From Escherichia coli (GTDB taxonomy: Bacteria > Pseudomonadota > Gammaproteobacteria > Enterobacterales > Enterobacteriaceae), in NCBI RefSeq assembly GCF_048403405.1, contig NZ_CP183129.1: a DNA stretch of 64,000 bases; one strand, written 5' to 3'. Both the position numbers and the translations under genes were made by a program. The notes below the pieces were generated by a model. It saw nothing but the letters and a program-made list of their open reading frames with translations, searched no databases and was not told the DNA's origin. This document shows, in pieces, positions 2,822-2,878 of this stretch (position 1 is the first letter of the stretch; every line of letters starts with the position of its first letter).

Positions 2822-2878
2822 ATTCAATAAAAAATGCAGAATAAACCAGACATTAATGTCTGACCTATTCTGCATTCA
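2822..2878 (-). terminator. Probable rho-independent terminator of leuO (45-bp palindrome plus T-run on the minus strand)
   Basis: aatgcagaata-aac-cagacatt-aatgtctg-acc-tattctgcatt is a near-perfect inverted repeat immediately 3' of the leuO stop, followed on the minus strand by TTTTTTATT. Confidence 0.6.

Follow-up and report, generated by a model that had tools for sequence, protein, structure and literature searches.

The 64,000 nucleotides of Escherichia coli DNA analysed here, called the window throughout, contain the leu/ilv region of this species in reverse reading direction (Table 1). The leuO gene is followed on its own strand by a near-perfect palindrome and then by the control region of ilvIH. 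The RefSeq records of K-12 and other E. coli strains annotate leuO, yabR and ilvI in this interval, and no regulatory feature is annotated in the leuO-ilvI stretch of these records. The transcription start of ilvIH is presumed to lie near 2595, and the -35 and -10 hexamers of its presumed promoter, read from the sequence, are each about 90-100% conserved in 76 species. An Rfam scan of both strands of positions 2000-5000 returns only the Leu leader plus chance-level matches at the palindrome (mir-577 at 2827-2882, 26.5 bits against a gathering score of 100).

The small protein YabR has been detected through epitope tagging (PMC6001520). Its gene is antisense to leuO and ilvIH and lies within the ilvIH upstream activating region, with a ribosome-binding site, GGAGG, that shares bases with the conserved block TGTTTATTCTT. 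A second terminator-like hairpin, flagged by a consensus scan only, occupies 2698-2718 on the minus strand (AATCCTCTGTAATGGAGGATT followed by TTATCGTTTC). This places it upstream of ilvIH and across from yabR, which it overlaps on the other strand.

Table 1. Features of the leuO-ilvI region in the window. Distances are counted from the presumed ilvIH start at 2595; spacings run to the next element towards ilvI, with the number of species (of 76) that share them.
Feature	Position	Strand	Sequence or product	Distance from ilvIH start	Spacing to next element	Basis or remark
Leu leader (Rfam RF00512) and leuABCD	from ~4469	plus				Rfam scan
leuO	2880-3824	minus	314 aa, stop TAA 2880-2882			translation; RefSeq annotation of E. 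coli loci that are identical or nearly so
Hairpin 5' arm	2857-2877	minus	GAAUGCAGAAUAGGUCAGACA			RNA fold
Hairpin loop	2853-2856	minus	UUAA here; UGAA in K-12, UCAA in APEC			RNA fold
Hairpin 3' arm	2832-2852	minus	UGUCUGGUUUAUUCUGCAUUU			RNA fold
U tract	2826-2834	minus	TTTTTTATT			first bases also pair at stem base
Probable distal ilvIH Lrp 'site 1'	2838-2852	minus	GTCTGGTTTATTCTG; core TTTATTCTG at 2838-2846	~ -250
Conserved block in 3' arm	2838-2848		GGTTTATTCTG	~ -250	31 bp to site 2 (73/76)
Probable ilvIH Lrp 'site 2'	2806-2820	minus	TAGAATTTTATTCTG	~ -218	42 bp (53/76) or 41 bp (17/76) to block 2773	near-consensus, highly conserved
Conserved block			AATTTTATTCTG	~ -219
Conserved block 2773	2773-2754		AAAAAATAGAGAAATTGCTG	~ -178 to -159	41 bp to block 2732 (75/76)
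Conserved block 2732			GATTTATTATC	~ -136	34 bp to block 2698 (73/76)
yabR	2681-2725	plus	14-aa small protein YabR, VKRNDKILHYRGLN			RefSeq-annotated
Conserved block 2698			GGATTTTATCG	~ -102	29 bp to block 2669 (67/76)
Conserved block 2669			TGTTTATTCTT	~ -73	41 bp to -35 (74/76)
Presumed ilvIH promoter	2601-2629	minus	-35 TTGCTT 2629-2624, 17-nt spacer, -10 TAATGT 2606-2601
ilvI	ATG at 2561	minus

The palindrome and the hairpin of leuO-sense RNA

An earlier note on this DNA had described a near-perfect palindrome of 45 bp immediately 3' of leuO. The palindrome is present at 2833-2876, beginning 3 nt past the leuO stop codon and carrying three mismatched positions (aac versus acc), and its length in the repeat search is 44 bp rather than 45 bp. 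The arms overlap, being either 23 nt with 87% or 26 nt with 88% complementarity. It is the longest and best of the palindromes in the window and occurs there once. Among E. coli genomes it is found in 5397 of 5426, at a median of one place per genome and always at leuO. A dispersed palindromic repeat of the REP/BIME type is ruled out by the single copy in the window and per genome. The K-12 MG1655 sequence differs at two positions, one at the 5'-arm base (AATGCAG to ATTGCAG) and one in the loop (ATTAAT to ATGAAT), and lacks one basal pair of the stem; the loop of an APEC strain is ATCAAT. Only 136 of 5398 E. coli records share at least 99% identity with the window over the 64 nt of the palindrome region. 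The near-perfect symmetry at the centre and ends of the palindrome is specific to the strain or lineage, and the same is true of the extra stem length.

In leuO-sense RNA the palindrome gives a hairpin of -25.7 kcal/mol, whose 21-bp stem is uninterrupted and whose loop has 4 nt. Two hundred shuffled sequences fold at -10.7 +/- 2.6 kcal/mol (z = -5.7) and none is as stable, so that a chance origin of the hairpin is excluded. The inner base of the stem, GCAG/CUGC, is GC-rich and the remainder AU-rich, with six GC pairs among the 20 counted, and UUUUUUAUU follows directly 3' of the hairpin on the sense strand. The three mismatches of the DNA are G·U wobbles in the leuO-sense RNA only; in the antisense RNA they are A·C mismatches that open a 3x3 internal loop, and the hairpin folds at -20.3 kcal/mol. 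This strand asymmetry of the G·U pairing points to selection on one RNA strand. The earlier note had taken the element most simply as the leuO terminator and had named RNA folding and terminator prediction, together with conservation across Enterobacteriaceae, as checks. The stable sense hairpin agrees with that proposal, as does the consensus scan, which flags the hairpin as terminator-like.

Conservation was followed in 80 leuO loci sampled across Enterobacteriaceae, with a LeuO identity of 73-99%. In a LeuO protein search aimed beyond Enterobacteriaceae, the 120 relatives among the matches listed all have at least 80% identity. A stable hairpin lies 3' of the leuO stop codon in nearly all of the 80 loci, and the conservation check thereby came out in favour of the hairpin, which stands directly after leuO across 77-80 Enterobacteriaceae species. 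The sense hairpin is more stable than its antisense counterpart in 74 of the 80 loci. The means are -18.3 kcal/mol for sense and -13.4 kcal/mol for antisense (Wilcoxon p = 4e-13, for loci from related species), and the sense hairpins contain 157 G·U pairs. For covariation, 77 distinct sequences were aligned with MAFFT; the species are related, and the counts are therefore not independent events. The RNAalifold consensus stem has 12 pairs, nine of which show compensatory changes. When the 20-pair E. coli structure is imposed on the alignment, 76.8% of the cells are paired, as against 40-45% with slid partners, and the covariation score is 0.418 compared with 0.226 in shuffles, none of 500 shuffles reaching the observed value. 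The double-change cells number 215, compared with 83 in shuffles.

These features are shared with the Rho-independent terminators of E. coli, which likewise place a stem-loop on the sense strand directly past the stop codon, have a stem base of the CUGC kind followed by a U run, and display strand asymmetry and compensatory covariation. The leuO stem differs from the usual examples in its much greater length, which is 18-21 bp in E. coli and 12-17 bp in other species, in its higher AU content, in having a middle that is conserved in sequence, and in standing without a clear U tract in about 30% of the related species. The sense-strand position 3 nt past the stop codon, the U tract, the sense-only G·U pairs, the covariation and the 74-of-80 asymmetry all argue for the terminator proposed by the earlier note, and we infer that transcription of leuO would actually end at this hairpin. 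As for mapped leuO 3' ends, the Term-seq supplements of Adams 2021 (PMC7815308) do not mention leuO, and the supplements of Yan 2018 (PMC6131387) hold nothing on it.

The stem exceeds that of typical terminators in length and AU content, and the hairpin could instead be a 3'-end protective structure or processing barrier. Transcription would then end through Rho or farther downstream, and the hairpin would stabilise the resulting leuO mRNA. Such a role would agree with the conservation of the hairpin in the 17 of 80 loci that have poor U tails of 0-3 T (the Klebsiella oxytoca group, some Kluyvera, and Kosakonia/Phytobacter). However, in most species, E. coli included, the CUGC base of the stem leads directly into a U-rich tail, and at least five T stand among the 9 nt 3' of the hairpin in 56 of 80 loci (~70%). 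This is the canonical layout of an intrinsic terminator, and it makes a purely stabilising role very unlikely.

The yabR gene, on the plus strand, points toward the palindrome, which raises the possibility of a bidirectional terminator, able to halt antisense transcripts arriving from yabR as well. Like bidirectional intrinsic terminators, the palindrome forms a long hairpin that is A-rich on one side and U-rich on the other when viewed on the plus strand, and the plus-strand RNA hairpin, preceded by an A-rich run, is still stable at the value given above. Unlike them, it has no U tract on the opposite strand, where CAGUUAGCGUUUGC comes after the hairpin, and A·C mismatches destabilise the antisense hairpin, which is the weaker one in the 74 species already mentioned. 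In addition, an A-rich stretch 5' of the hairpin on the sense strand is found in few species (at least five A in 9 nt in only 10 of 80 loci). A bidirectional function is thus a long shot.

The DNA palindrome itself, as a symmetric operator or a cruciform, has next to no chance of being the functional unit. Both DNA strands fold well when single-stranded (-13.8 and -13.4 kcal/mol, z ~ -8), with the 3x3 internal loop at the three mismatches here too, and the locus is a textbook case of supercoiling-mediated promoter coupling (PMC4770239). However, the central symmetry is strain-specific, the centre being T, G or C even within E. coli, and the loop varies freely in sequence and length among species. 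The distance from the 5' arm to the 3' arm ranges from 25 to 28 nt among species, as the distance from the stop codon to the hairpin also varies. The six outermost pairs seen in E. coli (AAUGCA/UGCAUU) form in only about half of the other species, and the positions that deviate from Watson-Crick pairing are overwhelmingly G·U on one strand, which speaks for RNA and not for duplex symmetry. The same variation bears on the length and perfection that the earlier note had found unusual for a simple terminator: both hold for this strain, in which the palindrome is long and near-perfect, but the loop, the outer six pairs and the arm distance vary elsewhere.

The 3' arm and the upstream array of ilvIH

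The alignment of the leuO-ilvI spacer from 76 species contains six conserved blocks in addition to the -35 and -10 hexamers, and the core GGTTTATTCTG of the 3' arm is among its most conserved stretches. The spacings between successive blocks are kept in most species (Table 1), in contrast to the distances from the stop codon to the hairpin, from the 5' arm to the 3' arm and from the -10 hexamer to the ilvI ATG, all of which vary. With gapless anchoring on the 3' arm, TTTATTCTG lies exactly 31 bp from site 2 in 71 of 77 species; in the spacer alignment the same spacing is found in 73 of 76 species, while the intervening sequence varies. Since the 3' arm is in fixed register and the 5' arm and loop are variable, only the 3' arm belongs to the rigid ilvIH array, of which it forms the upstream end.

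Natural insertions at the locus agree with an arrangement in which the 3' arm would be part of the ilvIH array and the 5' arm would lie outside it. In Citrobacter sp. MGH106 and Intestinirhabdus, 180-330 nt are inserted between the leuO stop codon and the hairpin, and the 31-bp distance from the hairpin to site 2 is preserved. The Raoultella insertion, of about 80 nt, separates the hairpin from site 2, and another TTTAT motif has come to stand 30 bp upstream of that site. The inserts of Citrobacter sp. MGH106 (~180 nt, L021 3448-3640) and Intestinirhabdus alba (~330 nt, L043 3451-3790) are GC-rich and hairpin-rich, and they have the look of small repeats or mobile elements.

Within the spacer, conservation is highest at 2754-2773, where the minus-strand sequence AAAAAAATAGAGAAATTGCTG is about 90-100% conserved in the 76 species. 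This block, at about -160 to -178, stands at fixed spacing between two groups of TTTAT-type motifs and matches the Lrp consensus at 11 of 15 positions in reverse orientation.

The Lrp consensus used for scoring is YAGHAWATTWTDCTR. Site 2, TAGAATTTTATTCTG, matches it at 14 of 15 positions and is the best match in the region, scores of this level having a frequency of 3e-5 in the window. The core TTTATTCTG of the 3' arm is identical to the right half of TAGAATTTTATTCTG, but over the complete 15-mer of the 3' arm only 9-10 of 15 positions agree with the consensus, the left half matching poorly. An overlapping 15-mer, CTGCATTTTTTATTG (2839-2825), matches at 12 of 15 positions, yet it is not conserved position by position. 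The Lrp footprint upstream of ilvIH, which we take to extend from about -260 to -190, would take in the 3' arm. ChIP-seq shows Lrp bound upstream of ilvIH, and the Lrp ChIP-seq supplements give no coordinates for this locus. PMC6640053, citing Wang & Calvo 1993, counts six Lrp sites in the control region of ilvIH and also quotes a related consensus, CAG-N9-CTG. The candidate in the 3' arm resembles the ilvIH Lrp sites in that its AT-rich TTTATTCTG equals the right half of a near-consensus site and in that it belongs to a conserved array rigidly phased to the promoter; it differs from them in matching the consensus at a half-site only (9 of 15 for the full 15-mer). The assignment of 2838-2852 to Lrp is a probable one, the 3' arm most likely serving ilvIH as its distal Lrp site as well.

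The pairs of the stem are not all constrained in the same way. In the middle of the stem (AAUAAA/UUUAUU) the sequence itself is conserved, beyond what pairing demands: the mid-stem pairs AUAAA/UUUAU show changes on both sides in 0, 0, 0 and 2 sequences, compared with 11-24 sequences for the apical pairs. Mid-stem pairs that are frozen while the apical pairs covary point to a constraint on the sequence in addition to that on pairing. Conservation of the 5' arm can be attributed to its pairing with the 3' arm. That the 3' arm is the more conserved of the two was considered as evidence for Lrp and set aside, since tolerance of G·U pairs would by itself produce this asymmetry and the difference is therefore not diagnostic.

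The element may also be a terminator and nothing else, the conservation of the 3' arm and the 31-bp spacing being by-products of the RNA constraint or of a region poor in insertions and deletions, with no use by Lrp. All the evidence for termination applies equally to this explanation. It also accounts for the poor left half of the putative Lrp 15-mer (9 of 15), and tolerance of G·U pairs would by itself leave a U/G-rich 3' arm more conserved than an A/C-rich 5' arm. However, a purely structural constraint does not predict a frozen mid-stem beside freely covarying apical pairs, nor does it predict that the spacing from the 3' arm through site 2 to the promoter is near-invariant while other distances in the spacer vary. 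Moreover, in Kosakonia/Phytobacter the hairpin has been remodelled, yet the motif TTCTTCTG is kept at the anchor 31 bp from site 2. An exclusive role in termination therefore seems unlikely, although it retains a real chance.

Taken together, these comparisons favour, with a probability of roughly two in three, the interpretation that the palindrome is a Rho-independent terminator of leuO whose 3' arm doubles as a putative distal Lrp site of ilvIH. The suggestion of the earlier note that the palindrome may also be a protein-binding site would hold for the 3' arm, whose motif GGTTTATTCTG is kept at 31 bp from site 2, but not for the palindrome as a symmetric unit, as its perfection is not conserved. 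There is a parallel in the gltBDF operon, whose Lrp sites are centred at -152, -215 and -246 (PMC1784095), so that those at -215 and -246 are 31 bp apart. As in the arrangement proposed for ilvIH, the gltBDF sites are distal and activating, lie more than 200 bp upstream of the promoter, and include two that are 31 bp apart; they differ in that, going by PMC1784095, none of them lies over an upstream gene's terminator.

The boundary between leuO and ilvIH

If the palindrome works as a terminator with a shared arm, RNA polymerase transcribing leuO would pass the stop codon, the nascent RNA would fold into the long AU-rich hairpin (2877-2832), and the polymerase would be released in the U tract (2834-2826). 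The stability of the hairpin would come from the length of its stem rather than from its GC content. Termination at this point would keep leuO transcription out of the ilvIH control region, which begins here, and would thereby shield the Lrp nucleoprotein array, the activator of ilvIH, from incoming polymerases. The DNA of the 3' arm would be put to a second use as the distal Lrp site, paired with 2806-2820 at a distance of 31 bp, or three helical turns. The AT-rich binding sequence would then fix the 3' arm, and the 5' arm would evolve to remain complementary to it, with wobble pairs tolerated.

Features of this kind are already known, and the locus has been studied intensively. Its slightly unusual point would be a terminator arm held in common with a putative transcription-factor site. 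This may explain the odd look of the terminator, as the leuO stem would be long and AU-rich because half of it is locked into the AT-rich putative protein-binding motif of the next operon. The palindrome would mark the precise boundary between the leuO transcription unit and the ilvIH control region in a model locus for promoter relay, and the position of this boundary is useful for annotation and for reporter design: a cut at the leuO stop codon keeps the hairpin intact, and a cut at 2852 splits it. The overlap of the 3' arm and U tract with the putative distal Lrp site might further be functional rather than just economical, Lrp occupancy and leuO termination influencing each other, either because bound Lrp acts as a roadblock that sets the efficiency of termination or because read-through from leuO evicts Lrp from the array that activates ilvIH. 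Such mutual influence is distinctly doubtful. If it did occur, it would be a direct cross-talk from leuO to ilvIH, opposite in direction to the known supercoiling-based promoter relay from ilvIH to leuO.

At the other end of the spacer, the Rfam scan of the Enterobacter leuO-ilvI spacer gave no match. The distance from the ilvIH -10 hexamer to the ATG is about 44 nt in Escherichia, Salmonella and Citrobacter, and about 105-116 nt in Enterobacter, Lelliottia, Klebsiella, Kluyvera and Kosakonia. These longer ilvI 5' leaders, seen in the sampled loci L022 (3700-3821), L040, L041, L058, L060 and L075, have in common a GCGGAAATGAATTCCGC-like hairpin motif about 45 nt 5' of the ATG.
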